Assembly (NCBI GenBank): GCA_964557575.1
Contig: CAZLBC010000001.1
Span: 2,296-66,295 of the forward strand
Source of the DNA: an uncultured Planctomycetaceae bacterium
GTDB lineage: Bacteria; Planctomycetota; Phycisphaerae; SM23-33
DNA: 64,000 nucleotides
Direction: 5' to 3'
Shown piece after piece: positions 22,965 to 57,648 of the stretch; the first letter of the stretch is position 1, and every line of letters starts with the position of its first letter. Below the pieces are notes generated by a model, which saw only the letters and a program-made list of their open reading frames with translations, searched no databases and was not told the DNA's origin. Position numbers and translations under genes: made by a program.

Positions 22965-22994
22965 GATTTCGGTCCTCCTGTTCGAGTGTAAAAT

Positions 22995-23015
22995 CCAAGT
23001 CCACCCCCTTTTTAT
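22995..23015 (-). promoter_or_regulatory. variant motif CCGATAAAAAGGGGGTGG
   Basis: See 7843. Confidence 0.3.
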
Positions 23016-23053
23016 CGGATACAAACCGGAACAACATGAGGAAAAATCCGAAA

Positions 23054-24249: not shown

Positions 24250-24594
24250 CTACTGCAGCAGGACGCGCTTGACGACGTCCCGGCTTTCATGAATGGACTC
24301 CTTGATCGAAATCGTCCACGGCGACACGACGCGGTCGTCCTTGCGCGCCTTGTCGTTCGGTTTCAAACAGAACCCGGGGTGGCCCGACAAGATTTCGGCG
24401 ATCTGTCGGATGGCCCACTCCGACCCGTCGGCGAGCAGCACGATGTTTTTCCCGTCTTTCTCGAACTCCACTTCCGCTCCGTTGCCCGCGCGGAACACGG
24501 CGTTGCCGTCCTTCTCGGAGAGCAACACGTAGCCGTACGCCATCAGCGCGGCGTGGAGCTTGCGGACCCAATCGATCTTCGGCGTTGTGATCAT
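24250..24594 (-). CDS. hypothetical protein
   Basis: Sits in the coupled operon. Confidence 0.5.
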   Translation of the reverse strand: MITTPKIDWVRKLHAALMAYGYVLLSEKDGNAVFRAGNGAEVEFEKDGKNIVLLADGSEWAIRQIAEILSGHPGFCLKPNDKARKDDRVVSPWTISIKESIHESRDVVKRVLLQ

Positions 24595-25232: not shown

Positions 25233-25849
25233 TTCTTTCTCCGCTTCGCTCGCCTGCGACGGCGTTGCGCGCGCCGCTTGTTGGTCCGGTATTCCGGATT
25301 CGGTTTTCCGCTGGCGTACTTCGGAAACGCCCGACGACGGTACTGAACGGTCGTCTCGCCGCTCTTGTTCCGGAACTTCTGGAGGTAGCCTTTGCGAAAC
25401 AACGTCCACGTCAGGTAGTTGTACATGAACGGCGCGACCGGCTTCAGGCTTTTGATGTACCCCTTTGGAAGGCCGGACTTGCCCGGCTGCCCGTCTTCGG
25501 TCAGCCAACCCGCGAGATACGCTTCAAGCTCTTCCTGCAGGATCACGTCCCCGCTGGCGAGGACCGGTTCCATATCCAACTCGCGAATCGCGTATTCCTT
25601 GCCGCCGGTCGAGTTGGCTTCGGGAGAATGCCATACAACATGAATCAGTCCGTCGCCGGGAACGTCGGTCACCTTGTAAAACCCGGGTTCCACGTCGACC
25701 CCGATGTCGGCATCGGTCAGCGCGCCGTCGGAGACCACCTCGAAAGCATCCCCCGGCTCCAAGCCTTCGACGACGGGTATTCCCATGGATATGGCAAGCC
25801 GCTCTTCGTCGGTCAACGTCGGATGATACAGTATGTCTCTGTCAAGCAT
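25229..25849 (-). CDS. hypothetical protein with polybasic C-terminus
   Basis: GGAGGT RBS. C-terminal RRAQRRRRRAKRRKK. Confidence 0.55.
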   Translation of the reverse strand: MLDRDILYHPTLTDEERLAISMGIPVVEGLEPGDAFEVVSDGALTDADIGVDVEPGFYKVTDVPGDGLIHVVWHSPEANSTGGKEYAIRELDMEPVLASGDVILQEELEAYLAGWLTEDGQPGKSGLPKGYIKSLKPVAPFMYNYLTWTLFRKGYLQKFRNKSGETTVQYRRRAFPKYASGKPNPEYRTNKRRAQRRRRRAKRRKK

Positions 25850-25960
25850 CGCAACCTCCGCCGATTATTATGCGGCTTTCACACGTCCAACGCAAACCAT
25901 GGAGTTGATCGTCGAATATTCGTATTCGACCGTAAAGGATACTTAGGGGCGACCTGATCG

Positions 25961-26563
25961 TCAACCTGCATCCTCGACCAGCTCGATGGTCACCCGGGTT
26001 CCGCGCTCTTTTCCCGCGTCGAGGTCCTTCTTCAAGACTTGCTCCTGTCCCATGTAAAGATCGCACCACTCCGGCGTGTCGTCGCGGACCCACCCGAGTC
26101 GAACAAGCACGTCAAGAAGCCCCTTCGCGGAACCGCCGAACAGGCTTTGCCTGTCGATCTTGCGCTGCCGCAGGGAAAATATGGTAACGCGCACCTTCTT
26201 TTCCGCGCGCCGGACCTTGCCGATCCCGGCGGCTTCCAGCGCACGGTACGCCGCGCCCTTGTCTCGCACGCGCAGGTGCGGCGACATGTGGTATTCATTG
26301 ATGCTTCGACAGTGGAAATCAAGCGTCCACTCCTGCGGGAACTTCGGCTTCGGACAGTCGTCATTCGCCGGGTACCGCTCCTCGGCGGTCAGCATGCGCT
26401 TTCGTTTTTTCTTTTTCTTCTTTTTGGCCTTCGGCAAAATCCGCTTGTCCGAGTCCGGGGAACAGTACGGACACGGGGCCTTGTGCGGCGGACAAGTATC
26501 CAAGTCGTGCATAAACGACTGGCCGCAGGAAGTGCAAACGAGCTTTACCGTTCTGACCAGCAT
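25961..26563 (-). CDS. zinc-ribbon / RusA-like Holliday-junction resolvase fusion
   Basis: N-terminal CTSCGQ...CPYCSP, a poly-Lys linker and a C-terminal DRQSLFGGSAKGLLDVLVRLGWVRDD matching the RusA family core. Confidence 0.5.
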   Translation of the reverse strand: MLVRTVKLVCTSCGQSFMHDLDTCPPHKAPCPYCSPDSDKRILPKAKKKKKKKRKRMLTAEERYPANDDCPKPKFPQEWTLDFHCRSINEYHMSPHLRVRDKGAAYRALEAAGIGKVRRAEKKVRVTIFSLRQRKIDRQSLFGGSAKGLLDVLVRLGWVRDDTPEWCDLYMGQEQVLKKDLDAGKERGTRVTIELVEDAG

Positions 26564-26567
26564 GCGC

Positions 26568-27293
26568 TCACGCTCCGTATCCGAGCTTATTGTTAACACC
26601 GTCGAATCCGTGCGCGCGGTACGCGGCTTCGACAGAGTCGCTCCAGTAGTCTTGGAACCTTGAAGGCGAACCTCCGGAGTATGTAAGCGTTTCAGCCCCG
26701 ATCGCGTCCCGGAGGCTTTCCAGCGAAACGCCGTCCGCGCCCACCGCCTCCACAATCGAAACTAATGCCGTGCGCTGCGCGTCCTCGCCGTTCAACCCGG
26801 ACACGTCGGCGAACGCGACTTCGCGCGCGTCCGACCGACCGACCCAGTCAAGCAGCGGACGGATTCCGTCGTGAAGGTTTCCGTGAAACCGATCAATGAA
26901 AACCCGAAGGTTCTCACTCGGCGTTTTTCCCGGGGAACGCCACCCCCACCGACCGCTCCGTTCACACCACCGCATGAACGACACAAGCGTATCTCGAATG
27001 TCCCGGTGAACGAACAGAACAACACCGTCGAAATCTCCGACGGTTTCCGGACCAATGTGACCCACGACGAACTCGCCGGGATTCAGAGAAGCGCACACTT
27101 CGGGCGCGCGGATTCCACAAGCGTATTTTTCTGGATTCTCTCGCGCGTTGCGGATGTCCGGGTTCGCCCCGTAATTGCTGACGAACCCCGTGGACAGGTG
27201 AAGTCCGCGATTGGCAAGTCCGATACGCTTCAAGACTTCGGCAACAAGATACGTTCCGGACTTCGGTATGCTGCAGACGACTGTTTGTTTCAT
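26568..27293 (-). CDS. sulfotransferase
   Basis: 5'-PSB motif CSIPKSGTY and 3'-PB motif RDIRDTLVS of PAPS-dependent sulfotransferases. Confidence 0.65.
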   Translation of the reverse strand: MKQTVVCSIPKSGTYLVAEVLKRIGLANRGLHLSTGFVSNYGANPDIRNARENPEKYACGIRAPEVCASLNPGEFVVGHIGPETVGDFDGVVLFVHRDIRDTLVSFMRWCERSGRWGWRSPGKTPSENLRVFIDRFHGNLHDGIRPLLDWVGRSDAREVAFADVSGLNGEDAQRTALVSIVEAVGADGVSLESLRDAIGAETLTYSGGSPSRFQDYWSDSVEAAYRAHGFDGVNNKLGYGA

Positions 27294-27946
27294 TCCTTGG
27301 CGTTTCCGTCCTCGATCTTCGGCAACCAATGCTTGCGACAACTCTCGTAAAAGTCCAGAAACTCTCCATGTTTTTCTTTGACGACTTCCAAAACAGCGTT
27401 CCGGTCGAACTCCTCGTTCCACGTTGTGAAGTTGTGCAAGGGGGAAGCGTCCACTTTCTCAAAGCCCGTGATCGCGGACAATTTGTCGAAGCTCGCCTGC
27501 ATGTGTTCCGCGAATCCGCAGAACAGGAACATTTCCGGACAAGGGTTCTTCGGAAGGTACTCCATAAGCCGTACCGGAAACCGTTCTGCGAAGTCCAGAA
27601 CGCCTTTGGGTTCCCCTTCGAAGTATTTCCCGTGTATCAGCATAGTGTCGCCTTTGACCAGCCAATTCTTTATCCAGTAAAAATAGAACGACGCCATGAT
27701 GGACACCGGGTCTCGAAGCCACGTGATCATTTGCCCCGGTTCAAACGTTTCGATCGCGCGCCCCTGCAACCGGTCGAAGTGCGTAAACACGAGCCGGTGT
27801 TTTTCACGATCGAACGCTTCTTCCTTCGAACACCACCAACTCTGGTCCTGCGTGAACCACTTCTTCCGAAGAAATATTCTGACGGCCGTCCCGGCGGTCT
27901 TCGGAACGTGCACAAAATAAAGTATTTTTTCCGGGGCGTACCGCAT
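27290..27946 (-). CDS. sulfotransferase-like protein (second paralog)
   Basis: HVPKTAGT PAPS-loop-like motif. ATGA-coupled to neighbours. Confidence 0.5.
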   Translation of the reverse strand: MRYAPEKILYFVHVPKTAGTAVRIFLRKKWFTQDQSWWCSKEEAFDREKHRLVFTHFDRLQGRAIETFEPGQMITWLRDPVSIMASFYFYWIKNWLVKGDTMLIHGKYFEGEPKGVLDFAERFPVRLMEYLPKNPCPEMFLFCGFAEHMQASFDKLSAITGFEKVDASPLHNFTTWNEEFDRNAVLEVVKEKHGEFLDFYESCRKHWLPKIEDGNAKE

Positions 27947-27971
27947 GTTCGCGCCTCGCTGCAAGCCCGCG

Positions 27972-28625
27972 TCACTTCTTCTCGAACCAAACCGCTCCGT
28001 TGCCCCCGTCGACGGTGTTCAGCAAAACCTCGCCGAAATACTCGGCGACCGCCTTGCGACAACCCGCGAGGTTGTAATCGTCTATGATCACTATACCTCC
28101 CGAACTGACAAACGGGTACAGGTGTTCGAGGCAGACAAGCGTCGAAGAGTACAAATCGCCGTCCAGCCGCAGCAACGCAATCGGATCGCCGTCCCACAAC
28201 GGAACGGTGTGCTGAAACCATCCCTTGTGATACTGAAGAATTTCCTCCGGCACGCCCCACCGATCCATGAGGCGTTGAACGCCTTCCAACGAACAAACGG
28301 AGTGCCCCGAGGACACGAGTCTTCCGGCCGCGTCGGGAGCCTTCGGTCCGATTCCCGGCTGCTGGTCGTCTTCGGGACCGGCTTCGGGGATTCCCTCGAA
28401 CGAGTCGAACAGGTGAAACTTTCGCGGAGGACCGTCAGGGTCCAGTCCCATCTTCGCCAACGCCATGATCGCAACCTGCGCGCCGCGATAAACCCCGCAC
28501 TCCACAAAGTCTCCCGGAACGCCGTTCTTCAGAACACGCTCGGTCATTTCATGCGTGTGGCGGTACACCGGAGGAGGCGTCAACGCGTTGTTCATGACCA
28601 AGTCTACGATATCTTGCTTCTTCAT
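27972..28625 (-). CDS. TylF/MycF-family SAM-dependent O-methyltransferase
   Basis: GDFVECGVYRG, LFDSFEG, LRLDGDLY and GGIVIIDDY motifs. AAGGAAG RBS. Confidence 0.7.
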   Translation of the reverse strand: MKKQDIVDLVMNNALTPPPVYRHTHEMTERVLKNGVPGDFVECGVYRGAQVAIMALAKMGLDPDGPPRKFHLFDSFEGIPEAGPEDDQQPGIGPKAPDAAGRLVSSGHSVCSLEGVQRLMDRWGVPEEILQYHKGWFQHTVPLWDGDPIALLRLDGDLYSSTLVCLEHLYPFVSSGGIVIIDDYNLAGCRKAVAEYFGEVLLNTVDGGNGAVWFEKK

Positions 28626-29200
28626 TCTGCGGTCTTCCTTGCTATCAAAACCGGAGGATTCTGATGTTCGTGTTCCGGAAATTCAAACCACCGGGAAAGT
28701 TTATCCCGCCACCACGCCATGGGGTGAACGGTCAAATGCAGGTTCTCCACGCCTTCCGGCGCGGGCGTCGAAGCGTAATGGGTCGCGATCGTCATGAACA
28801 GCATGCCGCCCGGTTTCAACTTGTCGCTCCACGTTTCGAACGTCGGTTCGACGTCGAACTCCCGAAGATGCTCCAGCATGTCGAACGATGTGATGGCGTC
28901 AACGCGCCCGGGTACCGCGTCCAGATTCCACGCGCCTCCGTGCAAAAACGTTATTCCCGCAGGAACCGGATCGTGCCGATGTACGTCGACTCCGTACAAC
29001 CGAACAACATTCGCGTCGAACATCTTGAGAAAGTTGAACCGTCCGCAACCGCAGTCGATCATCGAAGGATTGTCGCGGTCCGACAGAAACCGGGATACGG
29101 ACGGCTGCAGTTCGCCGCCGTGATTCGTCGTTCCGTACTGTGGGTTTTCAGCATACACCTCGTCATACACGCGCCGGTAAAACGCTTCGTTCGCGCTCAC
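28622..29200 (-). CDS. class I SAM-dependent methyltransferase
   Basis: GTG start after GGAGGA. Motif I IDCGCGRFNFL; also DAITSFDMLEHL and LKPGGMLFM. Confidence 0.6.
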   Translation of the reverse strand: MSANEAFYRRVYDEVYAENPQYGTTNHGGELQPSVSRFLSDRDNPSMIDCGCGRFNFLKMFDANVVRLYGVDVHRHDPVPAGITFLHGGAWNLDAVPGRVDAITSFDMLEHLREFDVEPTFETWSDKLKPGGMLFMTIATHYASTPAPEGVENLHLTVHPMAWWRDKLSRWFEFPEHEHQNPPVLIARKTAE

Positions 29201-29946
29201 AAGTATTTCCTCCAGTCAACGGAAGGAAATACCTTCAGTCGCCCTCCCGTGCCGTTAAGTATCGTCATTTGAGGATTGGCGTCAGCCAACTTGGCCCAGT
29301 GTTTTAATGAAACTTCCAACGCGAGGTCGGTTGTCAATTTCTCGCCGTTCTCCTCTTTCTCGTACTGACGCGCCCGCGCTTCCATCCAAGGAAGAAGCCA
29401 CGCGTCTTCAGGCTGTCCGGGAAATTCGTAGAAGTATTTCTTTCCGTCCTCTACTTGACAGTCGTTTCCAAGAAGGATTATCGGACTGCACCCGAGAATG
29501 GCGGCGAAATGAACCGCGCACTGAATGGAAGAGTGCCCGTATATGAGATTCTTCGCGGAGGGGTCCATCAGCAGGGTTTCGTGAGTGCTGTCCGCGAACG
29601 CGTACAGCAAGTACCTGTACTGTGGTCGGTAAACTCCTCCCCACCAGTCAACGCACTGAATGTTTTGCGTCGCCATGACAATATCACAGTTCGCCCACCG
29701 AACCGTTTGCCAATGCTTTCGCCAGATTACCCGCCAGTCGCTTGAAAAGAAAAAAGGCGCGCTCGGAAACTTTACGATCGCGCTGTTCACGGCGATGACC
29801 GGTTTTCCCTTAAACGCATCTTGCGGAATGCTTCGAAGGCTCGGACCCGACGCCGCGACAAAACCGGGTTGGCCCTTGTACTGTCCGCGCACCGCGTGGA
29901 ACGGGTCGTTTTTATTATAAAAATCCGCTATCGAAAAAGGTTTCAT
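29197..29946 (-). CDS. DUF115/MptE-like (Maf-type) glycan-modification protein
   Basis: PVIAVNSAI...GHSSIQCAVHFAAILGCSPIILLGNDCQ resembles the 6-hydroxymethylpterin-diphosphokinase-like fold found in motility-accessory-factor glycosylation proteins. Confidence 0.45.
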   Translation of the reverse strand: MKPFSIADFYNKNDPFHAVRGQYKGQPGFVAASGPSLRSIPQDAFKGKPVIAVNSAIVKFPSAPFFFSSDWRVIWRKHWQTVRWANCDIVMATQNIQCVDWWGGVYRPQYRYLLYAFADSTHETLLMDPSAKNLIYGHSSIQCAVHFAAILGCSPIILLGNDCQVEDGKKYFYEFPGQPEDAWLLPWMEARARQYEKEENGEKLTTDLALEVSLKHWAKLADANPQMTILNGTGGRLKVFPSVDWRKYL

Positions 29947-30641
29947 TCCGGAACTTGCCCCATCCCTTGGTTTACGAAAAGAACGTGATCGGCGACTTCG
30001 GAATCCGGCGACGCGTAGACCATTTTAGACTTGTCGCTGTCTATCCAGTGCACGCCCATTCGCGCAGTTACAACGCTCATCGCGGTCTGATCATGCCGAT
30101 GGCCAAGCACGCGCGGATCGCTCGAACAAGAACCGTCGTTGTTGTTCCACGGACCCGGGAAGATGTTGCCATCATTCCCCATCTCGATCATCGTGTCAAG
30201 AAACGCGTTCGCCTTGTCGTTTCGAAAGTCAAGACCGACGATGCACCCCATCAAGTCCGTCATTTCCATGGCTTCGTCCCGGGTCAAACCAAGACGCTCC
30301 AACGCGGCGTCGTGGCACCACTGGCCGACTTTCCACCCGTTGTACTGAAAATACCATCCGGTCTTATCGATGTATTCCAGTATCGGGTCGATCGGCTTCA
30401 TGACGGCGATCGCCGAGTCGAGCCAAAGCACGACGTCGTGCCCGTTCTCCTTTGCAATGCGGATTGCGTGGAACTTGAACGCGTACGGCGACGCTTCATG
30501 CGTCGGACTCCCCGGAGGAAACTCGTTGGTCCATTTAAGGAGCGGAACTTCGGGAGAGTGACGATTGAGCGTTCGTTCGAGTCTTCGCTGCCCTCTCGGG
30601 TACCAGCCCCCGACCGCGACGTTGACAACAACGGGATTCAC
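29943..30641 (-). CDS. putative glycosyltransferase
   Basis: GTG start after AGGAGA. Only weak similarity to nucleotide-sugar transferases. Confidence 0.4.
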   Translation of the reverse strand: MNPVVVNVAVGGWYPRGQRRLERTLNRHSPEVPLLKWTNEFPPGSPTHEASPYAFKFHAIRIAKENGHDVVLWLDSAIAVMKPIDPILEYIDKTGWYFQYNGWKVGQWCHDAALERLGLTRDEAMEMTDLMGCIVGLDFRNDKANAFLDTMIEMGNDGNIFPGPWNNNDGSCSSDPRVLGHRHDQTAMSVVTARMGVHWIDSDKSKMVYASPDSEVADHVLFVNQGMGQVPE

Positions 30642-30651
30642 GCTTGTTCTC

Positions 30652-32910
30652 CTATTCGTGTCTGCGCGTCCGTCTGGACGACTTGCGATCGTGCGGGTCC
30701 TCCCGTTCGGCCTTCACGCCTTCCGTGCGAAAAGACGACCGATGGTGCGACGGCGGACCGTCCTCGTTTTTCTCGGCGGTTTCCCGCGCCTGCTGTTCCC
30801 GGATTTGCTGGCCGAAGACGGACGCCGCTCCTTCCGGCGTCGGCCGGTAAACGTACAACGGAACGGGGATGAACCGTTCGGTCTTGATCATTCCCGATTT
30901 CGCCATGCGCTCCGAATAATCGGCGTCCTCGCCGAAACTGGCGTTAATGAAGGGGAACTTGATCGCGATCGACCGGCGAACGGCGTTCCAGTGGTTCGGC
31001 GGCCGGAAGTACATGTGATCGTTCTCGAAATAATGGTCGTACATCAGGCTGTGAATGAACGGCTTGGGCGGGTCGGACATCATCATTCCGCCGAACGTGA
31101 CCGCGTCCACGTCTCCGGCGGCCAACGCGCCGAGGATCGTCTCCATGTACTTGTCAGAGACGTCGTCGTCATCGTCGAGGAACATGATGTATTCCCCGCG
31201 AGCGCGTTGAATCAAATTCGTTCGCTTCTCGCCGATCGTCCGCTGTCCGGAGTCCTCGTCGATCAGAATTTCAACGCTCCGTTCCATCCGGATCGCGCGA
31301 ATCTGGTCCGCGATCTTCCCGCACAACGCCGTGCGCATGTCGCGCCGCTTTACCATCGTCGGCATCAGGATCGATAAGAGCATGCGCGGCTGTACGCCGC
31401 CGAAATCCTCGGATTTTCGCCGAAGGTAGACCGGTTGGTCGATGTGGTAAAACTTGGAATCCCGGGAGTACAACTCGTCGGTAATCTCCGCGCCGTGCGT
31501 GGACGGGTGGACGTGGTGAACAACCGACCAGTCAATGTACGCCTGCCGGGCGAGGAGACCGCCGACGTCCGTGAACTCGTTGTCGCACCACATCCCCTGA
31601 TACGCGGGATTGTACGCGTACCCGAAGCGGTCGTAATACTTCTTTCCGACGATGACCTGCGTGTTCAACCGCTTGCCGACGCCGCCGTCGTGAAACCAAA
31701 GGCTCCCGTCGGTATCCGGGAAATACTTCTCCATGGCCATGAGGATCGCGTCGTCCCACCCGGCGAACTGGGGAATGACGTCGTCTTGCGCGAGCATCAT
31801 GACGTCCCACGGTTCCGTAACGTCGTTGATCCCCCGATTGAACGCGTCGATCTTGTTCCTCGACGAACCGCCGACGATCGTGATCTCGCATCCGTACGCT
31901 TCACACGCGGCGACGCGCTGCAGGATTTCCTCGGTCATGGTTTCATCGTCATCGTCGTACACGACGAGAAAGTGAACCTCGTTGCGCCGCGAAAGCTGCC
32001 TGCAGTATTTTTTCTCGAACACGTCGAGGAACTTCTCCGGACGTGAACGCGTCGGAAACTTGACCAAGAGCCGGTGCATCCGGCGAACGCCGCCGCCGAG
32101 TTGCAAGAAGTTGGACGCCGGACGTTCCGGCGCGTTGCCTCGTCCGACCATGTTCTCGATGTTGTGGCGCGCGAAATCGTTCCGGTTCGGTTCGTGCGCT
32201 TTGTCGTACAAGAGACTGTCGAGGTAATCCGCCGGGTTTTCCTCGGACTTCAGTTTCGATATCGGCACGACCGTCTTTCCGAACGACACGGCCTTGGACA
32301 CGGGACGTTCCGTTTCCCGCGCCGGATCGTAGAACACGACACGGGAACACATGATTGCCTTGTCAATGTCGTCCGGCATGCAGACCGAATAGTTCACCGG
32401 GAACTGCGACAGCGTGTCCACGACATCCTTGGTCACCGGGGGGAGGATCGTGAACTGCTGCCGGTTCTTCAAAAAAGCCTGAATCAACTTCAGCCATCCG
32501 GGGTCGTCCACCGGAAGGCCGTACACGCACACTTCGGATGACGGAACATTGAAAGACACCGGTGCCCACGCGCTGTTTCCGACCACGCTGCGAAGCGTGT
32601 CGACGTCGCTTTTCACGGCCGTGATGATCCCGGCGAACCGGCCTTCCTTGGCAGCCGTCATGGAACGGATCAGGAGTTTCCGATCGACGGACGCGACCAG
32701 TCCGAACACGCGCCCCGGAAACTGTTTGCACAAGTACCGGGTGCCAAACGCGTCCGGGTCGTCGGCGACGAAAAACCAGTCGTACCGGGACAGGCTGAGG
32801 TGCATCGCCCGGTCGATCGGGTAGAAATCGAACCCCTGCGCGACGGCGAGGGCCTCGGCATACGCGTAAGCGGCTTTCGTCTTTGTCGACGCGATTACAC
32901 AGGCTTTCAT
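30652..32910 (-). CDS. multidomain glycosyltransferase (two GT-A/GT2-like DxD domains)
   Basis: LSILMPTMVKRRD...IMFLDDDDDVSDKY and VHFLVVYDDDDETMTEEIL show GT2 DxD signatures. 752 aa. Confidence 0.7.
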   Translation of the reverse strand: MKACVIASTKTKAAYAYAEALAVAQGFDFYPIDRAMHLSLSRYDWFFVADDPDAFGTRYLCKQFPGRVFGLVASVDRKLLIRSMTAAKEGRFAGIITAVKSDVDTLRSVVGNSAWAPVSFNVPSSEVCVYGLPVDDPGWLKLIQAFLKNRQQFTILPPVTKDVVDTLSQFPVNYSVCMPDDIDKAIMCSRVVFYDPARETERPVSKAVSFGKTVVPISKLKSEENPADYLDSLLYDKAHEPNRNDFARHNIENMVGRGNAPERPASNFLQLGGGVRRMHRLLVKFPTRSRPEKFLDVFEKKYCRQLSRRNEVHFLVVYDDDDETMTEEILQRVAACEAYGCEITIVGGSSRNKIDAFNRGINDVTEPWDVMMLAQDDVIPQFAGWDDAILMAMEKYFPDTDGSLWFHDGGVGKRLNTQVIVGKKYYDRFGYAYNPAYQGMWCDNEFTDVGGLLARQAYIDWSVVHHVHPSTHGAEITDELYSRDSKFYHIDQPVYLRRKSEDFGGVQPRMLLSILMPTMVKRRDMRTALCGKIADQIRAIRMERSVEILIDEDSGQRTIGEKRTNLIQRARGEYIMFLDDDDDVSDKYMETILGALAAGDVDAVTFGGMMMSDPPKPFIHSLMYDHYFENDHMYFRPPNHWNAVRRSIAIKFPFINASFGEDADYSERMAKSGMIKTERFIPVPLYVYRPTPEGAASVFGQQIREQQARETAEKNEDGPPSHHRSSFRTEGVKAEREDPHDRKSSRRTRRHE

Positions 32911-33668
32911 CAGAAGAACCCTTTCAGCTTCTCGGGAATTTCCCCGTTTCGCAATTGTTCCATAGCTTCATCGGGGTTCACCCCGAGGTTGCGTATAAGA
33001 AACTCCAATGATTTTTCATCGTTTGGATTGATTCCGATCGCGTACAAACGCTGTCGAATCTTTTCGGCCATCTCCGGCGGAAGCTGCGCGAGCAGACCGG
33101 ACAACGTACGCTGCGCCGGGGTCTTGATCGGGTTGGCCCCTTCCTGTCCGCGCGCTTCGGCGATCCGCTGTTCTTCCGTCATGGCGATTCGCGCCGAGAA
33201 CGCTTCTCCGAGGCCGCTCATCACAACGCCCATCAACGGTTCGATGTATTCAATGCCGACCTGTCGGTCGGATACGTCCTCCAGCACGCCTTCCATGTTA
33301 AGTACGACCCGATCGACGATTTCGTGTATTTTGCGGCGCGTAAGCGCGACCTTGCTCATGTTGCGCGCGTCGTTCAACAGCTTGGAACTGGAAGTGCGGA
33401 CGGCGGCGAACAAGTCTTGGCGGGGGATCAACCGCATGCAGTAGTTGCTGCAATAGACTTTTATCATCGGTTTGAATCGCCGAAGACGCGCGGCGACAAG
33501 CGCGGTTTGCGGGCTTTCCGTGAACACCGACTTGGGGGCTTCCGGTTCGGTTTCCCGCTTCGGCTTGGCCTTGTCGGCGGCGTCGAACGCGGTAATGAAA
33601 TCACGCGCCTTGGACGCGCGTCCGCCCCACAGCTTTTTCTTTCTCGGTCTCGACGTGTCGTCGGTCAT
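32910..33668 (-). CDS. hypothetical protein
   Basis: Lies between the portal gene and the glycosyltransferase. ATGA overlap. Confidence 0.5.
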   Translation of the reverse strand: MTDDTSRPRKKKLWGGRASKARDFITAFDAADKAKPKRETEPEAPKSVFTESPQTALVAARLRRFKPMIKVYCSNYCMRLIPRQDLFAAVRTSSSKLLNDARNMSKVALTRRKIHEIVDRVVLNMEGVLEDVSDRQVGIEYIEPLMGVVMSGLGEAFSARIAMTEEQRIAEARGQEGANPIKTPAQRTLSGLLAQLPPEMAEKIRQRLYAIGINPNDEKSLEFLIRNLGVNPDEAMEQLRNGEIPEKLKGFF

Positions 33669-33712: not shown

Positions 33713-35455
33713 TTATTCGGCGGTCTGCTCCGAGGTCTTGTCGGTCTTGTCGGACTTCTCTTTCTCTTTCTCCGCACGTTTGCGCTCTTCTTCGAGGGCG
33801 TCAAGCCGTTCGGCGAACTCCGCGCGGAACTTCACGCGTTCGTCGCCCTGCCGCAGGTCCGATTCAACCATTTTCATCAGGTCTCGCGGGAGCTGCAGTC
33901 CGACATTCCGAGACTCGACGCGCCATTCGACATTCCGTTGCTGACCCTCTTGGATCGCCTGCGCGACTTTCGGGTGCGTCATCACGTTTTCGGTCGCTTC
34001 CTCGGGAGACGCCCCGGTATTCCGAAGGTCGTGTAGCGCGTCGATGACGGTCTCGGTAAACGACTTCGTGAATATCGGAAACTCCGTAAGAACGACTTCC
34101 AACCACGCGGATTCATCGACCCCGAGCGTCGAACCGATCCGCGCGAGCGTCTCCATGGACCGCAGCCGCGCCTCGAACGTTTCCAGCCGGTATAGCTCTT
34201 CCAACGCGCTGGGCGGAACCATGCACAGGGTAAACGAATTTTCCTCGATGAGCGGATCGACGCCTCTGTACTTCAAATCCATCATCGCCAAACGGGCGAC
34301 CTCTGCAAGAAAAATCCTCTGGAGATTCGCGGCTTGCCGCGCGAACCTCGAATCCTGCTGAGACGGGCTTCGTTCGAAATTCGCTTGCCCCTCGTACCCG
34401 AAGTACCCCTTCGGCGCGCGCAACGCGCCGAACATGCGGTCGAGGAACATTTCGAGGTCCCGCATGTCGTCGACGCCCTTGGTTCCGGGAAGCACTTCAA
34501 CGTCCGTTTGATCCGCTTCGCGGAACCAGATGAAGAAATCCTCGTTTTCAGCCAGCAACGTGTACACGCTGGCGAAGTCGACGTTCGTCGGGTCGAAGTT
34601 ATAATCGCGCTTGACGTTCCGACGGTACTTCTCGATTTTCATTTCGGCGTCCACCGCGCCGAGACCGGTCACATCGATCTTGTGCTTGTAACGGTCGGGG
34701 TTTCGAAGCAACCGCATCAACGCGACCTTGTCCTCCATCATCTGAACCTGACGCCAGATGCGGCGGGCACCGAACAGCGTGGACGTTCCGTAAATTCGCC
34801 GCACGCTTCGCCCCAGTTTCCGGAAATGCAGGAAATCCCACGGCTTGGACAGAAGCTGAATGTTCTTCTGCTTGCTGACTTGCATGCCGTAGTTGTAGGT
34901 TTCCTCCGACTGGTACGGCGTGAAACCGCGAAGACGTCCGTACTCGTCGTGTACGCGGGAAATCGTCGCCGGGTGGTAGTTTATCAGCCGCTGAACGCCT
35001 GACTTCGGCTCCGCCAGAATGAACTCGAACTCGTCGCCGTACTTGGCCAACTGCCGCATGATCGGCTGCGCCAATTCGTCGGAAAGTCCGGTTTCGGCCA
35101 ACATGCTGTTGACCATGGACTCGACGTCCTTGTTGTGGCTCTCGCACCATACGATGACTCCGCGCCGGGCGTCGCGCTGCGTGGCGTCTTCGGTCAATTG
35201 TTCGAGGAACGCGAAGATCGTCGGGTCCAATTCCATCTCATCGTACAGGGCGTAGAGCAACGCCCGCTCCTCCTCGAACTGGAGGAGTTGGTTGTACATC
35301 ATCGACATCGGGTTCGGCACGACTCCGGTCGGCGTCTCGACGCCCATCGCGCCGGGGAACGGGAGCCGAACCGGTTGACGCGAAAGCGGCTTGTCGTAGC
35401 CGTAAAGCTGCAGAAGCGACGGTTCCGGAGAAAGAGAATATCTTTTGACAACCAC
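33713..35455 (-). CDS. portal protein (putative)
   Basis: 580-aa gene starting 3 nt after the terminase stop. GTG start after AGGGAGG. Call rests on size and position. Confidence 0.5.
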   Translation of the reverse strand: MVVKRYSLSPEPSLLQLYGYDKPLSRQPVRLPFPGAMGVETPTGVVPNPMSMMYNQLLQFEEERALLYALYDEMELDPTIFAFLEQLTEDATQRDARRGVIVWCESHNKDVESMVNSMLAETGLSDELAQPIMRQLAKYGDEFEFILAEPKSGVQRLINYHPATISRVHDEYGRLRGFTPYQSEETYNYGMQVSKQKNIQLLSKPWDFLHFRKLGRSVRRIYGTSTLFGARRIWRQVQMMEDKVALMRLLRNPDRYKHKIDVTGLGAVDAEMKIEKYRRNVKRDYNFDPTNVDFASVYTLLAENEDFFIWFREADQTDVEVLPGTKGVDDMRDLEMFLDRMFGALRAPKGYFGYEGQANFERSPSQQDSRFARQAANLQRIFLAEVARLAMMDLKYRGVDPLIEENSFTLCMVPPSALEELYRLETFEARLRSMETLARIGSTLGVDESAWLEVVLTEFPIFTKSFTETVIDALHDLRNTGASPEEATENVMTHPKVAQAIQEGQQRNVEWRVESRNVGLQLPRDLMKMVESDLRQGDERVKFRAEFAERLDALEEERKRAEKEKEKSDKTDKTSEQTAE

Positions 35456-35458
35456 GGC

Positions 35459-38400
35459 TTACGCCTCCCTGTTCTGAATCATTTCCCGGACCTTTTTAAG
35501 CGTCGACTCCTGATAGGTCATCGCGCCGTCGACGGTCGGAGTCAACAGTGTACCGACCTGCTCGTCCTGCATGCAATTCCAAACCGCGCCGCACACGGAG
35601 TCTGAAACATCCTTGCTGTTGTGCACAAAAACCCCGACCGAAAGAGCGAAATTATTCCACTCGTCGACTTCAAGGTCGTAGACGGGAACCGGCTCGTCCA
35701 GAGTAACCGGAATAACGTACCGGACTCGATGGTTGTCGCCGGTTTCATCAGCCAAGTACCGGTCCCGGCTTTCGTACCCGCCATTACGTGGAAACTGACG
35801 AGTTATCGGCATCAACCGGTCCCGCACGGGTACGAGGTCTTTGGCGCGCTTATACGAACCGTCTCGGAGCATCCATAGGTGTTCCGGAGTGCACCGAGCA
35901 ACCGCGCCGTTGTCGAGTATCACGTCAATCAGGTTCTTCGTGGTCTTCGTTTTACGCCCGCGCGCCCAACCGGCGACGATACTCCCGTCAGGCCGTGCGG
36001 AATAGACCCATCCTTCCCAACCGTCCAATTCCGAAATCCGGCGACACGTCCCGTCAAGCAGCGGGATTCGGGTGTCACCCGTAAAACAACCGCCCGGAGG
36101 GTGATCAATCTTGTCTTCGTCAGTCAACTCCAACGCGAGCAACTCGTCCTCAAGAACCTCGTGTTTCGGCCATGTAATCCGGTTCTCGTTCAGGATTGTT
36201 TTGAAAACATAATACTGTTCCGGACGCCTGTCGAGCGTCAGATACCCGGCTTCGATCCGGGACTTCTTCAGGTATTGAATTTCCCCCTGACCGGCCGGAG
36301 AGTCGTACGTTACTTTTCGGAGGACGAAGTTTTTCTCTTTCAGCCACAGGATGAAATCGCGGATTTTCTCCCAGTCCACTTCGTCCGTGTCAGGCGTGAT
36401 CTGAAGCGCGAAGTCGACCTCTATCGTCAACTCCGTACGCCGGTCGTAGTGTCCGGTGTCGGTACGGACCTGCCGCGAAACGGCTTTCGTCGGGTGGACC
36501 ATCGCGACGCCGACGGCGTCGCCGTTTCGCGAAATGTCAACATGGATGTACCGGGGGGAGTGCGGCATGCGTTTCGGGACGTCGCGGGAAGATCGAACCG
36601 TAAGGAACTCTTCGCGGAGAACGTAGTCCTGAATGCGGTCCGGGCGTTGAAGGTCGATCTTCATCGGACAGTCCCAGCGCGCTCCCATCCCGGCAACGAA
36701 CGGGTGCGGAAGAACGGCCTCCCCGTCGTTCTCCCACTCGACGGAAGCCTCTATAATCGGCTGGCCGCGAGGGAAGAACGGATTGATCGCTTCCGACGGT
36801 ATCCCGGCGATGTCGCGCAGGGAACCGATCGGGTCTTCGTTGAACGCGCGGAAATCCTCCACCGGGACGTCAATAGTGCGAACGCCGCGCGGAGGATTTC
36901 CTCCCTTCTTGATGCGAAACTGTCCGAATCCAAGGTTTTCCACGCCGTCGAGACAATGCGGCTTCACGAATTTGTTGCCGACAACAAATCGAAACGTCAA
37001 CCCCGATTCCCGCCGTCCGGATTTCGGCTGAAATTCCCACTGCGGGCCGCCGACGACGTGCACGTTCCGGTTGTTGGCAACCTCGCGCTTCCGAATTTCC
37101 AAGTACGAGTTTGACGCCTTCGTGGACGAAATGTGAATGATCATGCCGGACGTCGCGAACCGCGATTCCATGCGCCGGGAAGTTTGCTGGACGAGGCTGT
37201 GGACCTTCCCCTTCTCTTCCAACGTCTTGGCCTTCTTCTGCTTCTTCGTCTGCATGTGGAAGTTCATTTCGTCGATGGCCAGACAAAACAGGTTGTGTCC
37301 AAGAACGTGAAAAGCAGCGGAACCGATCATAAACTTAATATTCTTGGGGAAATGCAGTTCGCTGTACTGCTCCTTGTACCAGAACTTCTCCTTGAAATAC
37401 GGCGACTGGTCCAGAAGACCGAGAAGCGTCGACATTCCGACATCCGTCAATCTCAACGTCGCGTTGTAAATACCGAAGACGATCGGAGACCCCTTGGACA
37501 ACCCGTGGTATCCGGCGGGATCGCGCAGGCAGGACAACTGATAAAGTTTGAAGATCATCATGACCATGGAATTGAACGTGTTGTGACTCATGAATCCGTC
37601 GGAAACGTAACTCGGGTCGTCCTCCACCGACAAGTCGTAGCAGTGCGCGTGATCGTCGTCCACGGTTTCGACCGTATCAAATAGCAGGTGTCCTCTGGCG
37701 ATAGCGCACAGAACGTCAGGAAGCGTTCCCGCCGCATCCAAGACCTCGTTCAAGAGCCGTCTGGTTGCACGTTGTTTAACGAGGCGTCTCAGGAGCCGGG
37801 ACGGTCCCTTGCGCTTTTCGTACCCGTCTGGAGCCTCTCCGCGTTTGTGCCGGGGCTGCATCTTTCGAAGTTCAGCGACGCATGTCTCAGGAATCCTGAA
37901 CGAAAACGAGTGATCACAGTTTCGGTTCCACCGGGAAGCCCGTTCGATCAAAGCCGCTTGTTTCCGGTCGTGGTAGTGACCAATCTGCGCGGCGAACTTT
38001 GCTTGAGAGTCCGTACCGACAACCCGAACGGTATACGCCCGCCCTGTAACGTAACGAGTGCCTGCGTCAGTATACGCGGCTTCCTTTGACGTAACCGAAC
38101 AGTACATTCCGAGCGACGTCAAAAGAACCCGAACCTGACGCGCTAATTGCTCAGACGTTGTCGTGAGGGAACAGTCCGAATCGCCGCTGTACCCGTCGCC
38201 CGAGAACAAACCCCTGAGATACGCGCAAACTCCCGCTCGGCTGCTTCTGAAAACAACTGGAGGAATCGTGCGGGTCCCGCTTTTTTGACCTTCGCCTTCT
38301 CGAAGAACCGAATCCGGTCTTGGTTTAATCGTGAACTCTTTTGAAAACTCAGACCGTGCATCTCGGCTTCGTTCGTGAACCCACTCGATTCCAAGTTCTT

Positions 38401-39172
38401 CCCGAACGAAATCAAAAAGGTTCAAAACATAATCGTATTCCTCTTCGTGTACGCTTACTCGTGCATACCTGACGTCTGGTGTCCAACAACCTTCAGCCGT
38501 TTCCCAACCGAGGGCTTCCATCGCTCCTTCCGAAAAACCTGAATTTGTCGGGAAAGCGTACGGGTATTCCAGAACACAATCGCCTTCGACCAAGTCTTCC
38601 AACGCCACCCATTCGACGTCAAGCCCTCGAAGAACACGAATACGGTGGTTCGGTCGGCCTTCAAATACGTGTCCGTGTTTTGTAGTCACTTTCTTAGTTG
38701 AAGTCAGTCCTTCGTTGTGATACTCGGAAATCGGACAGTACCCTGACTCAGTCAGAACCTCGACGTTCATCCTGTTATCGACAATATCTTCGATTGGAAT
38801 CATCCCGCGAGACGTCGAGATCAGCGTACCTCTTCGGCTACACTTCCCGATTCCAATTCCGCCATCGATGATCACTTCGTTGATCTGATTCCTCGGGTCG
38901 AACGTCGTCAACAATTCCTTTTGCCATCGCGGCCAGATGTCCACGCCGCCGAGGTAGTACGGATTCGTGATAAACTCGTCGATTCCGACCGGAGGCTCGT
39001 CGTAGTCCATCTGCGTAATAAAATCCCGGGACAGCGACTTGCCGCTGTTCCGCAGCGATTCTTCAATTCCGCGAATCGCCCACGTCTTTTCACTGTCCGA
39101 CAACGAATCGAAAAACCGAAGGACTTCCGAGTCGAGCTTCGCCAGCGCAGCGCGAATTTGGTCGACGTTCAT
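35459..39172 (-). CDS. terL: terminase large subunit containing two inteins
   Basis: Walker A GGIGIGK-[intein]-TFNSM reconstitutes GIGKT. ATPase and nuclease regions are present. Position is upstream of the portal gene. Confidence 0.8.
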   Translation of the reverse strand: MNVDQIRAALAKLDSEVLRFFDSLSDSEKTWAIRGIEESLRNSGKSLSRDFITQMDYDEPPVGIDEFITNPYYLGGVDIWPRWQKELLTTFDPRNQINEVIIDGGIGIGKCSRRGTLISTSRGMIPIEDIVDNRMNVEVLTESGYCPISEYHNEGLTSTKKVTTKHGHVFEGRPNHRIRVLRGLDVEWVALEDLVEGDCVLEYPYAFPTNSGFSEGAMEALGWETAEGCWTPDVRYARVSVHEEEYDYVLNLFDFVREELGIEWVHERSRDARSEFSKEFTIKPRPDSVLREGEGQKSGTRTIPPVVFRSSRAGVCAYLRGLFSGDGYSGDSDCSLTTTSEQLARQVRVLLTSLGMYCSVTSKEAAYTDAGTRYVTGRAYTVRVVGTDSQAKFAAQIGHYHDRKQAALIERASRWNRNCDHSFSFRIPETCVAELRKMQPRHKRGEAPDGYEKRKGPSRLLRRLVKQRATRRLLNEVLDAAGTLPDVLCAIARGHLLFDTVETVDDDHAHCYDLSVEDDPSYVSDGFMSHNTFNSMVMMIFKLYQLSCLRDPAGYHGLSKGSPIVFGIYNATLRLTDVGMSTLLGLLDQSPYFKEKFWYKEQYSELHFPKNIKFMIGSAAFHVLGHNLFCLAIDEMNFHMQTKKQKKAKTLEEKGKVHSLVQQTSRRMESRFATSGMIIHISSTKASNSYLEIRKREVANNRNVHVVGGPQWEFQPKSGRRESGLTFRFVVGNKFVKPHCLDGVENLGFGQFRIKKGGNPPRGVRTIDVPVEDFRAFNEDPIGSLRDIAGIPSEAINPFFPRGQPIIEASVEWENDGEAVLPHPFVAGMGARWDCPMKIDLQRPDRIQDYVLREEFLTVRSSRDVPKRMPHSPRYIHVDISRNGDAVGVAMVHPTKAVSRQVRTDTGHYDRRTELTIEVDFALQITPDTDEVDWEKIRDFILWLKEKNFVLRKVTYDSPAGQGEIQYLKKSRIEAGYLTLDRRPEQYYVFKTILNENRITWPKHEVLEDELLALELTDEDKIDHPPGGCFTGDTRIPLLDGTCRRISELDGWEGWVYSARPDGSIVAGWARGRKTKTTKNLIDVILDNGAVARCTPEHLWMLRDGSYKRAKDLVPVRDRLMPITRQFPRNGGYESRDRYLADETGDNHRVRYVIPVTLDEPVPVYDLEVDEWNNFALSVGVFVHNSKDVSDSVCGAVWNCMQDEQVGTLLTPTVDGAMTYQESTLKKVREMIQNREA
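35618..36088 (-). mobile_element. intein 2 (mini-intein) in terminase C-terminal domain
   Basis: CFTGDTRIPLLDG start, block B CTPEHLWM, ends VGVFVHN|S. 157 aa with no endonuclease domain. Confidence 0.7.
37580..38842 (-). mobile_element. intein 1 (LAGLIDADG-type) in terminase P-loop
   Basis: CSRRGTLIST start, block B TKHGHVF, LAGLIDADG-like AMEALGWETAEG and AYLRGLFSGDGY, ends SHN|T. Confidence 0.7.
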
Positions 39173-53349: not shown

Positions 53350-54291
53350 TCAAGCCTGCGACAGTTTCAGCCAGATCGCGACCATGATTTCGTCGACGAC
53401 TTCGTCAACGGTGCGATCCTTGGTTTCAACAACGCAGTCGGCTTCCGCCGGTTCTTCGTACGGATCGTCGATCCCGGTGAATCCCTTGATCTCACCGGCG
53501 CGGGCTTTCGCGTACAAGCCCTTGACGTCCCGCGCTTCGCACTCTTCGAGACTGGTGGCGACGTGGACCATGAAGAACCGCTTGTCGCCGATCAGGTCTC
53601 TCGCGGACTGCCGGGCTTCCGCATACGGCGAGATCGCCGCCGTGATCGCGATTCCTCCGACGTCGGCGACCGACTTCGCCACGAAGGAAAGCCTTCGAAT
53701 GTTTTCGTCCCGGTCCTCTTTCGAGAATCCGAGTCCCCGGTTCAAGTTCGTCCGGACCTCGTCGCCGTCCAGAACCTTCACCCGGTGTCCGAGTTCGTTC
53801 AACCGGCTTTCAAGAGCCACAGCGATAGTGCTCTTGCCAGAACCTGACAGCCCGGTAAACCAGATGACAAGGCCATTGCCTGCGTCACCACCGGTTGCGA
53901 GGACTTCCGCCGTCGCCATTGGAACCTTTTCCCGCCACGACTCGTCGCCTTCCGCCATGAGCGTTCGGACTTGGGTCGCCGAGATTCCGCCGATCTCCGG
54001 CGGCACGACGTCCTGTAAGTCACGAACTTCATAGCCGACCTTTCGTCCGACGACCACCGCCGCGATGTCCGGGATGGCCATGACGCGAACACAACCGGTT
54101 TTGATTTCGTCGGAGTACACGGCGCGGATCATCGCGATCCGCTCTCCCAGCGTGTACGGGTCTCCGTCGTTGACCGGCGTGTCCCGCACGGCGATCAAGA
54201 CGTTCTCGTCGCGATCCAGAGCTTGCTGGATCAGCCATTTGTGGCCATTGTGGAACGGCTGCCACCGGCCGATGTAAAGCGCGTACTTCAT
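53350..54291 (-). CDS. cysC: bifunctional HxGH-nucleotidyltransferase-like / adenylylsulfate (APS) kinase
   Basis: N-terminal [12 protein letters not shown] ((H/T)xGH nucleotidyltransferase). C-terminal [13 protein letters not shown]...LDGDEVR...AISPY matches the APS kinase core. GAAGGGAG RBS. Confidence 0.75.
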
Positions 54292-57640: not shown

Positions 57641-57648
57641 AATTCTAA

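Follow-up and report, generated by a model that had tools for sequence, protein, structure and literature searches.

In the actinobacteriophages Che8, Corndog and Myrna, capsid and tail-tube proteins are glycosylated by phage glycosyltransferases (Freeman 2023, as recounted in PMC12363180 and PMC11256854). The Che8 operon of genes 108-110 combines soluble glycosyltransferases with a sugar O-methyltransferase domain and has no export machinery, and giant viruses with capsid or fibril glycosylation of the chlorovirus or mimivirus type, which includes methylated sugars, likewise use virus-encoded, host-independent cytoplasmic glycosyltransferases and methyltransferases. Rhizobial NodH/NodPQ-type systems pair a sulfotransferase with a dedicated enzyme that makes the donor 3'-phosphoadenosine-5'-phosphosulfate (PAPS). 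Among viruses, 'sulfotransferase family' proteins have been annotated in cyanophages (P-SSM7, S-SCSM1, ACG-2014f), Ralstonia phage phiRSL1, Megaviridae and OM43 phages, and the function of such proteins in phage genomes has been called unclear (PMC10580990; also PMC8290583). Here we analyze a gene island at positions 26568..33668 (minus strand) of a 64-kb stretch of contig CAZLBC010000001.1, hereafter the window, which represents part of a genome of at least 198 kb and, judged from its genes, derives from a large, uncultured and distant phage with a T4-like portal. The island encodes predicted glycosyltransferases, methyltransferases and two sulfotransferases, and the same window carries a gene for an adenosine-5'-phosphosulfate (APS) kinase, which gives the same pairing of sulfotransferase and donor enzyme as in the rhizobial systems. 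We propose, with moderate confidence, that this putatively late and soluble cassette produces a glycan that is both O-methylated and O-sulfated, with virion proteins as its most likely carriers; our confidence in the glycan-building, methylating and sulfating chemistry is much higher than that in the virion as acceptor.

Gene content of the island

The interval contains 8 minus-strand open reading frames (ORFs), in the order g252, GT752, g232, DUF115, MT192, TylF, ST2 and ST1, and 6 of them equal in length proteins called on a 198,081-bp NCBI contig. An earlier reading of the sequence alone (the sequence-only reading) had counted ten genes here, a number that is reached (10-11) only when the terminase, the portal and the downstream RusA-like gene are included. 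The translational coupling that it described holds for five junctions, at which start and stop codons overlap (TGATG for g252/GT752, GTGA for DUF115/MT192, and ATGA for g232/DUF115, MT192/TylF and ST2/ST1), but the remaining two are gaps, of 10 nt with a GGAG between GT752 and g232 and of 25 nt between TylF and ST2. The operon-like packing of the island is thus real. The terminase, the portal and the downstream gene are packed as tightly, with 3 nt between the terminase (terL) and portal genes, 44 nt between portal and g252, and 4 nt between ST1 and the next gene, g200; the GC content of the island is not distinct from that of its surroundings, and all recognisable genes of the window lie on the minus strand. 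Since 7 of the 8 ORFs have a glycan-related assignment or context, the island is no chance grouping. Scans for sigma-70 promoters and terminators across 25-40.5 kb returned no higher counts than shuffled sequence, and the T4 late-promoter motif TATAAATA was absent.

The last two genes of the island encode predicted PAPS-dependent sulfotransferases. ST1 (26568..27293, minus strand; 241 aa) is Sulfotransfer_1-like and starts at the ATG at 27293, not at the longest-ORF start at 27422, whereas ST2 (27290..27946, minus strand; 218 aa, ATG at 27946) is Sulfotransfer_2-like, that is, of the carbohydrate type. Direct searches of Pfam, NCBIfam and PDB sequences with the two proteins yielded nothing usable: ST1 scored 13.3 bits (E=0.054) against Sulfotransfer_1 (PF00685), for which the cut-off is 22, and ST2 had no Pfam match even at E<=10, its only direct match being phrog_3347 (3e-4). 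A match of ST2 to L-glutamate oxidase was discarded as spurious. The Pfam search that the sequence-only reading had suggested as a check therefore misses both enzymes at default thresholds, and reliance on it would have led to their wrongful rejection.

The profiles of homologues and the predicted folds were more informative. ST1 has 16 homologues at ~30% identity, 11 of which match PF00685 and some of which are named sulfotransferase in metagenome-assembled genomes (MAGs) of Planctomycetaceae. Across these 16 sequences, P11, K12, G14, T15 and Y16 (PKxGTY) of the 5'-phosphosulfate-binding (5'-PSB) loop IPKSGTYL are invariant, as are the 3'-phosphate-binding (3'-PB) segment R98...S106 (HRDIRDTLVS) and the catalytic H80. 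The ST1 profile matched cytosolic SULT structures (2.7e-7) with the motifs aligned, the PSB loop with PKSGT of SULT7A1, and H80 and R98...S106 with the histidine and RNPKDTAVS of the same enzyme. The AlphaFold2 (AF2) model of ST1 (mean predicted confidence, pLDDT, 91.8) was compared with the PDB by Foldseek, and the top 42 matches were all sulfotransferases, led by SULT7A1 (2e-6) and Teg12, with TM scores up to 0.64.

ST2 has only one close homologue (57% identity), and searches with ST2 as query found no relatives in viral contigs, cultured phages or metagenome contigs. An exhaustive profile search, by contrast, recovered 359 remote homologues, and 35 of the 50 that were aligned match PF03567. 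The ST2-family profile matched the heparan-sulfate 2-O-sulfotransferase HS2ST (3.4e-7) and 6-O-sulfotransferase HS6ST (3.5e-7), with HxPKTGGT and RDPxxRxxS, the PSB and 3'-PB motifs, aligned; compared with these enzymes, ST2 is much smaller, soluble and remotely related. Among the 50 sequences, G19, R78, P80 and S86 of ST2 (motifs HVPKTAGT and LRDPVSIMAS) are invariant, and H13, P15 and H56 are conserved in >=90%. The top Foldseek matches of the ST2 model (pLDDT 92) in the PDB are again all sulfotransferases, at TM scores of only 0.35-0.55, and its top BFVD matches are annotated viral sulfotransferases.

By their 5'-PSB and 3'-PB motifs, catalytic histidine and modeled fold, ST1 and ST2 are thus confirmed as predicted sulfotransferases of the PAPS type. 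The sequence-only reading was right on this point, and the motifs it quoted are present (IPKSGTY and HRDIRDTLVS in ST1, HVPKTAGT in ST2), but the two are not the paralogs it took them for: they belong to different families, share 11% identity and align with an hhalign probability of 82%, which excludes recent paralogy. A carbohydrate context is suggested for both enzymes, by the heparan-sulfate enzymes as the nearest solved relatives of ST2 and by the location of an ST1 homologue (P0006) in a cluster of sugar-nucleotide and GT1 glycosyltransferase genes. The annotated viral sulfotransferases have the same fold in BFVD; the difference is that here the pair lies in an operon with glycosyltransferases and methyltransferases and is accompanied by a phage PAPS-supply gene.

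The largest island protein, GT752 (30652..32910, minus strand; 752 aa), consists of three parts, namely, an N-terminal domain (residues 1-275), which matches nothing in Pfam or PHROG searches, a GT-A domain (~280-482, GT752_M) and a GT2 domain (~511-711, GT752_C). The C-terminal domain matches PF00535 (9e-10 over aa 558-624; 39.2 bits against a cut-off of 23.3) and, over aa 511-711, phrog_8858 (1.7e-29) and phrog_14775 (2.9e-27). The middle domain (aa 280-482) matches phrog_14945 (5.8e-17) and, very weakly, Glyco_tranf_2_4 (E=0.16), and its putative status as a second GT-A domain is less firmly supported. Both domains carry an acidic DxD run (YDDDDE in the middle domain, LDDDDD in the C-terminal one), so the description of a double glycosyltransferase of 752 aa in the sequence-only reading stands, with a Pfam GT2 family for the C-terminal domain and a PHROG family for the middle one. 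A search of viral contigs with GT752 as query found no relatives.

The DUF115/MptE-like protein (29197..29946, minus strand) is probably a glycosyltransferase of the Maf/GT42 (nonulosonic-acid) type, although this assignment is weak. It matches PF01973 at 2e-7 and phrog_4603 ('alpha-2,3-sialyltransferase') at 7e-13, which agrees with the initial call, but its Pfam score of 31.4 bits is below the cut-off of 34.6. With a 7-sequence profile, the top 7 PDB matches were all Cst-II sialyltransferase, at a nonsignificant E~0.2; the shared motifs are an N-terminal GPSL and LGC.PI.L.G.D. Both methyltransferases proposed initially are borne out. TylF (27972..28625, minus strand) belongs to the macrocin-type, metal-dependent sugar O-methyltransferase family (PF05711, 1e-39; 136.8 bits against a cut-off of 23, profile positions 78-242 of 264; LDGDLYSS motif), and MT192 (28622..29200, minus strand) is a class-I S-adenosylmethionine-dependent methyltransferase that passes the Methyltransf_23 threshold (7.5e-12) and also matches Methyltransf_11 (7e-7) and phrog_24759 (1.6e-12). 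In Kyte-Doolittle profiles (19 residues) of ten proteins, only DUF115 (1.96) and TylF (1.62) exceed the usual ~1.6; we read these stretches as buried core rather than membrane helices, and the island enzymes thus look soluble.

The 232-aa protein g232 (29943..30641, minus strand), labeled a putative glycosyltransferase in the sequence-only reading, has no Pfam, PHROG or NCBIfam match, and its profile matches no Pfam family or PDB sequence. What stands of that label is the context: g232 belongs to a large uncharacterised family tied to glycan clusters, with 227 homologues at 36-53% identity, none of which carries a Pfam domain, and with conserved WLDSA and GHRHDQ motifs. One homologue lies in a phage-like contig with GT11, acetyltransferase, TylF and methyltransferase genes, and another adjoins GT61 and UDP-glucose dehydrogenase genes in a bacterial chromosome. 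A third is located ~7 kb away from the gene for the major capsid protein, in a 262-kb contig that belongs to an NCLDV, one of the nucleocytoplasmic large DNA viruses (L005, 8059-17798), in a cluster with GT10, GT11, GT15, GT92, methyltransferases and a 422-aa GT752_M/C-like protein. Judging from this gene content, the phage module is common to eukaryotic giant viruses, from which the present cassette differs in belonging to a tailed phage with a T4-like portal and in including sulfotransferases. We consider g232 a candidate for a new glycosyltransferase or glycan-modifying enzyme.

Relatives of g232 are encoded by 217 IMG/VR contigs; none was found in cultured phages. We scored the neighborhoods of 86 loci (80 of the 217 IMG/VR loci plus L001-L006) and found genes for GT752_C in 29, GT752_M in 22, TylF in 18, DUF115 in 7 and MT192 in 2. 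An ST1- or ST2-type gene was present near g232 in none of the 86, which suggests that the non-sulfation part of the cassette is a widespread viral module and that sulfation is an addition in this phage.

The APS kinase fusion and the sulfate donor

Approximately 20 kb from the island, within a tRNA array, a single gene (53350..54291, minus strand) encodes a nucleotidyltransferase (NTase) with a HIGH motif (aa 1-~135), similar to nicotinamide mononucleotide adenylyltransferase (NMNAT), fused to an APS kinase (aa ~139-305). The kinase domain matches PF01583 (4.1e-65) and TIGR00455, at 227.7 bits against an equivalog cut-off of 138.7, and contains P-loop and DGD motifs as well as RDVKGLY. The 'PAPS-generating enzyme' of the sequence-only reading is therefore a bona fide APS kinase, but one that still needs APS. 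The best matches of the NTase domain, which has an ISATQVR motif, are archaeal NMN adenylyltransferase structures (1.4e-8); by sequence it is no member of the known ATP sulfurylase families (Sat, PF01747, or CysDN), and its only match to PF01747 covers 26 residues (E=0.046). Going by its company, the fused NTase may make APS, in which case the protein would be a minimal PAPS synthase and a new kind of ATP sulfurylase, an activity that would be new to the NMNAT-like fold. In the CysDN/NodPQ and Sat systems the donor enzymes differ from this fusion, and nothing relevant on an NTase-APS kinase fusion was found in the literature searched.

We found relatives in 33 IMG/VR loci, and in 31 of these the two domains are fused or encoded by adjacent genes, in both orders. 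An ST2-family gene is present within the 10-kb flanks of 9 of the 33 viral loci, ~3 kb away in most of the 9, and in L096 the sulfotransferase, kinase and NTase genes are consecutive. Marine loci with an ST2-family gene and the kinase pair also encode a Methyltransf_24-type methyltransferase and a DUF2061 protein; a WavE-like match in them is weak and sub-threshold, and SDR-epimerase-like and UDP-glucose-dehydrogenase-like ORFs were recognized by N-terminal sequence only. The full-length fusion occurs, at 39-46% identity, in MAGs of Omnitrophota, Planctomycetota and Woesearchaeota, and on Omnitrophota and Planctomycetota contigs it adjoins Sulfotransfer_3/_1 genes, a sulfatase, methyltransferases and a B12-radical-SAM gene. 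By gene neighborhood, the NTase and APS kinase pair is clearly tied to sulfation.

A protein of ~246 aa, annotated as kinase or adenylylsulfate kinase, is encoded by Xylella phage Bacata (L007, 3578-4318) and related Stenotrophomonas and Xanthomonas siphophages; its C-terminal part matches the NTase domain of the window at 35-39% identity, in reversed domain order. There is no evident sulfotransferase near the Bacata gene, a reminder that such pairs need not all be PAPS synthases.

These neighborhoods bear on an explanation in which the parts are unconnected, the APS kinase serving as an auxiliary gene of sulfur assimilation for host cysteine and the sulfotransferases acting on a small molecule or peptide. 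The distance of ~20 kb between kinase gene and island and its location in the tRNA array would fit, as would the fold matches of ST1, which are best with small-molecule SULTs and with Teg12 and StaL, two sulfotransferases that act on glycopeptides; cysC-type genes reportedly feature in studies of viral auxiliary metabolic genes. However, the repeated proximity of the NTase and kinase pair to sulfotransferases, in viral loci (9/33) and on cellular contigs, is not what this explanation predicts, and in the window we saw neither a gene for PAPS reductase nor any other gene of assimilation. Moreover, ST2 is coupled to ST1 by ATGA and follows TylF by 25 nt, TylF and ST2 occur together in a close relative (L134, see below), and the nearest solved relatives of ST2 are carbohydrate sulfotransferases. 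We regard unconnected parts as improbable.

Alternatively, the NTase and kinase could make a 3'-phospho-nucleoside-5'-diphospho-X other than PAPS, so that a methylated phosphoryl-type group would be installed by the enzymes with a sulfotransferase fold together with the methyltransferases. This alternative is modeled on the cytidine diphosphoramidate pathway for the O-methyl phosphoramidate of the Campylobacter capsule, which comprises a cytidylyltransferase, a CysC-like kinase and methyltransferases, and the window indeed contains an NTase-kinase fusion and two methyltransferases. Nevertheless, the kinase scores far above the APS kinase equivalog cut-off (227.7 versus 138.7 bits), ST1 and ST2 keep canonical PSB and 3'-PB motifs and the catalytic histidine, and the ORFs scanned include no recognizable glutamine kinase or amidohydrolase. 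The NTase of the window is NMNAT-like, whereas the Campylobacter cytidylyltransferase has a different, MobA-like fold. We regard a donor other than PAPS as very improbable.

Candidate acceptors of the proposed glycan

In the pathway that we propose, with the sequence of its reactions, its sugars, its acceptor and the part played by the NTase all inferred, a short glycan would be assembled from host nucleotide sugars in three or four glycosyl transfers, carried out by the two GT-A domains of GT752, the DUF115/GT42-like protein and probably g232. The TylF-type enzyme and MT192 would O-methylate it, and ST2 and ST1 would add sulfate esters from PAPS. The supply of PAPS would be boosted by the phage APS kinase, and the fused NMNAT-like adenylyltransferase may provide APS from ATP and sulfate. 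The product would be an anionic, methylated glycan coat, with a structure that differs among related phages. Because the enzymes look soluble and we found no gene for a lipid carrier, flippase, polymerase or exporter, the glycan is probably attached to some macromolecule of the cytoplasm, with virion proteins as the likeliest acceptor; decoration of the virion is further suggested by partial homology to Che8 gp108 and by the position of the genes.

This homology involves two island proteins. GT752_C matches the N-terminal glycosyltransferase of Che8 gp108 (phmmer, 4.7e-31) and aligns at 33-37% identity (tblastn) with 89 records of actinophages of Mycobacterium, Gordonia, Streptomyces and Actinoplanes, and TylF matches the C-terminal domain of gp108 (1.7e-10). 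In the mycobacteriophage system the O-glycans sit at the C-termini of capsid and tail-tube subunits, and the acceptors proposed for the present phage are likewise virion proteins, modified in the cytoplasm. In contrast to the Che8 operon, glycosyltransferase and methyltransferase are separate genes here, the glycosyltransferase has a second GT-A domain and an N-terminal domain joined to it, and g232, DUF115, two sulfotransferases and a phage APS kinase are additional; furthermore, the island adjoins the portal gene rather than the genome end, is known from the genes alone, and belongs to a phage whose host is no actinobacterium but, tentatively, a probably PVC/Omnitrophota-like bacterium (PVC, the Planctomycetes-Verrucomicrobia-Chlamydiae group). 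Che8 gp110, which is reported to be essential, and gp109 have no match in the island (gp109 profile, 4.4 bits; gp110, nothing). We tried g232, GT752_M and DUF115 as counterparts of gp109 and gp110 and found no match; an initial E=3e-4 between GT752_M and gp109 was lost with a profile. The relation to Che8 is thus best described, at the level of sequence, as partial homology and not as membership in the same system.

Comparison with relatives places the island in a variable slot between conserved genes. The T4-like portal gene (33713..35455, minus strand; PF07230, 2e-39) is its upstream anchor and g200 (25961..26563, minus strand; zinc-ribbon and RusA-like, phrog_34 7.6e-4) its conserved downstream boundary. 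Always between the portal gene and the first glycosyltransferase gene lies g252 (32910..33668, minus strand; 252 aa), which has no match in Pfam, PHROGs or NCBIfam and could be a component of the virion, an assembly factor or the acceptor itself. Contig L130 (portal 61% identical) keeps the order from SbcD through terminase, portal and g252 to GT752, with the same g252/GT752 overlap, a g252 homologue (6.8e-20) and a full-length GT752 homologue (3.5e-173). The gene that follows portal and g252 (3e-9) in L131 (portal 58%) encodes a different protein, of 802 aa and with two GT1/GT4 domains, and next come g200 and an island of three methyltransferase genes. The short contig L134 (1-3472, corresponding to window 25229-28625) comes from a very close relative, with flanking genes 94-99% identical and g200 94% identical. 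However, TylF is 86% and ST2 only 57% identical, the two genes overlap, a different gene lies upstream of TylF, and ST1 is absent from L134. The junction into g200 (GGAGCGTGA-N-CGCATGCTGGTC) is nearly the same in L134 and the window, a comparison that implies a clean gain or loss of ST1 together with replacement of the ST2 allele. Searches with g200 or g206 for more relatives found none. On this comparison, a conserved and putatively late gene block contains, between g252 and g200, a hypervariable island of glycan enzymes, and such variability is what one would expect of a surface structure under diversifying selection. The genes g305 and g206 (24591-25849, minus strand) lie beyond g200, and their longest ORFs overlap by ~280 nt; as the start of the g305 homologue overlaps the g206 stop as ATGA in L134, the g305 start in the window is probably near 25232 (~213 aa).

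Hypervariability of this kind also resembles that of O-antigen loci and would fit a role in remodeling of the host envelope, in which the cassette modifies a glycan of the lipopolysaccharide/O-antigen, capsule, S-layer or exopolysaccharide at the cytoplasmic face, on a lipid carrier or in an ABC-transporter pathway, and host machinery exports the product. The availability of receptors would change, resulting in superinfection exclusion or in less progeny lost to cell debris. In agreement with such a role, the ST1 homologue mentioned above belongs to a cellular sugar-nucleotide/GT1 cluster, the marine loci with ST2 and kinase genes contain the polysaccharide-type ORFs (SDR-epimerase-like, UDP-glucose-dehydrogenase-like and weakly WavE-like), and the bacterial g232 homologue adjoins GT61 and UDP-glucose dehydrogenase genes; related PVC bacteria reportedly make sulfated exopolymers. 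Yet neither the island genes nor those ORFs of the window that were scanned revealed a priming transferase, flippase, ABC or other transporter, polymerase or ligase, and the enzymes have no convincing membrane segment. The seroconversion systems known so far belong mostly to temperate phages, whereas this phage looks lytic and T4-like, with the island joined to a putative late structural operon, and proteins are the acceptors suggested by the homology to Che8 gp108. Envelope remodeling is therefore the main alternative, one that we take seriously while considering it unlikely.

Hypermodified DNA would be another cytoplasmic acceptor: the glycosyltransferases would decorate a hydroxymethylated base, as happens in T-even phages and in other viruses whose DNA carries glycans, with methyl and sulfate groups tailoring the sugar for protection against restriction. 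Virus-encoded glycosyltransferases can put diverse glycans on DNA (Pyle 2024, as described in PMC12619734), and both the portal and the gene layout of the present phage are T4-like. In addition, DNA modification or restriction is in play in the window, because it encodes a nucleoside 2-deoxyribosyltransferase-like protein (22371-23528, minus strand; 385 aa; PF15891, 5e-14) and a GmrSD_N and HNH nuclease (366 aa) next to an EcoRI-type adenine methylase (5.4e-125; 61464-63820, minus strand). This last part of the window, in which the GC content is lower (0.46-0.53), may be a mobile restriction or anti-restriction island. In the g232-bearing phage contig L001, a Nuc_deoxyrib_tr gene adjoins PTPS/QueD, which hints at modification of nucleotides or DNA bases in these phages. 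For the cassette itself, however, the closest characterised relative of its glycosyltransferase and methyltransferase lies in a protein-glycosylation operon, and neither a kinase nor a hydroxymethylase gene belongs to or adjoins the island. For the dCMP hydroxymethylase, beta-glucosyltransferase and dCTPase of T4, the 64-kb window contains no homologue (tblastn, E<=1), a weak negative given that only a third of the genome is covered. Furthermore, GmrSD-type nucleases attack DNA with glucosylated hydroxymethylcytosine in the known cases, and a phage-borne nuclease of this type fits poorly with self-glycosylated DNA. We thus consider DNA as the acceptor quite improbable.

Several observations weigh against a sulfated, methylated glycan on virion proteins. 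The product and the acceptor are both deduced from gene content, and the assignments of DUF115 and g232 are insecure. GT2 and TylF enzymes act on many types of acceptors, and the closest solved relatives of ST1 are small-molecule and glycopeptide sulfotransferases. The window contains no major capsid or tail-tube gene and hence no candidate acceptor tail, and at 64 kb of the genome it leaves room for export, lipid-carrier or DNA-modification genes elsewhere. Che8 gp110, reported as essential, and gp109 lack counterparts, the genes downstream of the island are non-structural, and sulfated glycans on phage particles are undescribed in the literature searched.

Surrounding genes and implications

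The sequence-only reading had placed the block beside virion structural genes. This is correct for its upstream side, where the island directly follows terminase and portal, but not for its downstream side, where RusA-like, helicase and ribonucleotide reductase genes are found. The best matches of the portal are only 22-28% identical, and the island DNA matched none of 50,697 phage records, so that no cultured relative is at hand. The large terminase gene (35459..39172, minus strand; 1237 aa), which has homologues in L130 and L131, contains two intein-like insertions: a block that starts with Cys at residue ~111 and ends ...SHN/T at ~531, and a second that ends ...VHN/S at ~1185. With boundary motifs C...HN-T and C...HN-S, these are apparently two inteins, and the terminase ORF is much shorter in L131. 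Similarly, the ribonucleotide reductase ORF (2527-6231, minus strand; 1234 aa) has an HNH endonuclease segment inserted at aa ~531-604, probably an intein or homing endonuclease. SbcCD and helicase genes are also present in the window.

The window contains 23 tRNA genes, spread over 47.5-64 kb. One of them (59444-59516, minus strand) has the anticodon CTA, is labeled 'Pyl' by ARAGORN and is of the amber-suppressor type; TAG ends 6 of 46 inspected genes and is thus seemingly still a stop codon. Elsewhere, a GroES/Cpn10 domain is present in one protein (57172-57714, minus strand; 2.5e-22), and another (8556-9929, minus strand) has a 2H phosphoesterase 'Swiss Army Knife' domain (4e-5, below the cut-off).

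What is new in this locus is the combination of a predicted phage glycan cassette with sulfation and with a donor supply of its own; virion glycosylation and the individual viral enzyme types are known. The system had been put forward as undescribed, which agrees with the absence of a paper on a phage sulfation system in the literature searched, but only in part, since O-glycosylation of virions is established and sulfotransferases are annotated in many phages and giant viruses. Phage virion glycosylation has so far been shown for only a few actinobacteriophages, and a partly homologous enzyme set is found here in an unrelated large phage with a T4-like portal. The core module, comprising g232, two GT-A enzymes, TylF and DUF115, is represented across hundreds of contigs from uncultured viruses and on one contig of a giant virus. 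Because the module is so widespread and the set occurs in an unrelated phage, virus-encoded glycan decoration may be much wider than thought.

For the phage sulfotransferases, the cassette suggests a concrete role, namely, sulfation of a phage-built glycan, fed by a phage gene for PAPS supply. In the most far-reaching version, which we regard as distinctly unlikely, phages of this lineage would coat their virions with a phage-made O-methylated, O-sulfated glycan, with the donor coming from a minimal PAPS synthase that contains an NMNAT-like ATP sulfurylase of ~130 residues. If so, sulfotransferase clusters of many marine viruses, Omnitrophota, Planctomycetota and Woesearchaeota would be supplied by this two-domain module. 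The recurrent occurrence of the NTase and APS kinase near sulfotransferases could reveal a third kind of ATP sulfurylase. Since the enzyme content changes fast between near-identical relatives, the structure of the glycan appears to be under diversifying selection. If present, a sulfated, methylated coat would alter the charge of the particles and their adhesion to mucus or polysaccharide matrices, as well as their recognition by receptors, grazers and immune systems.

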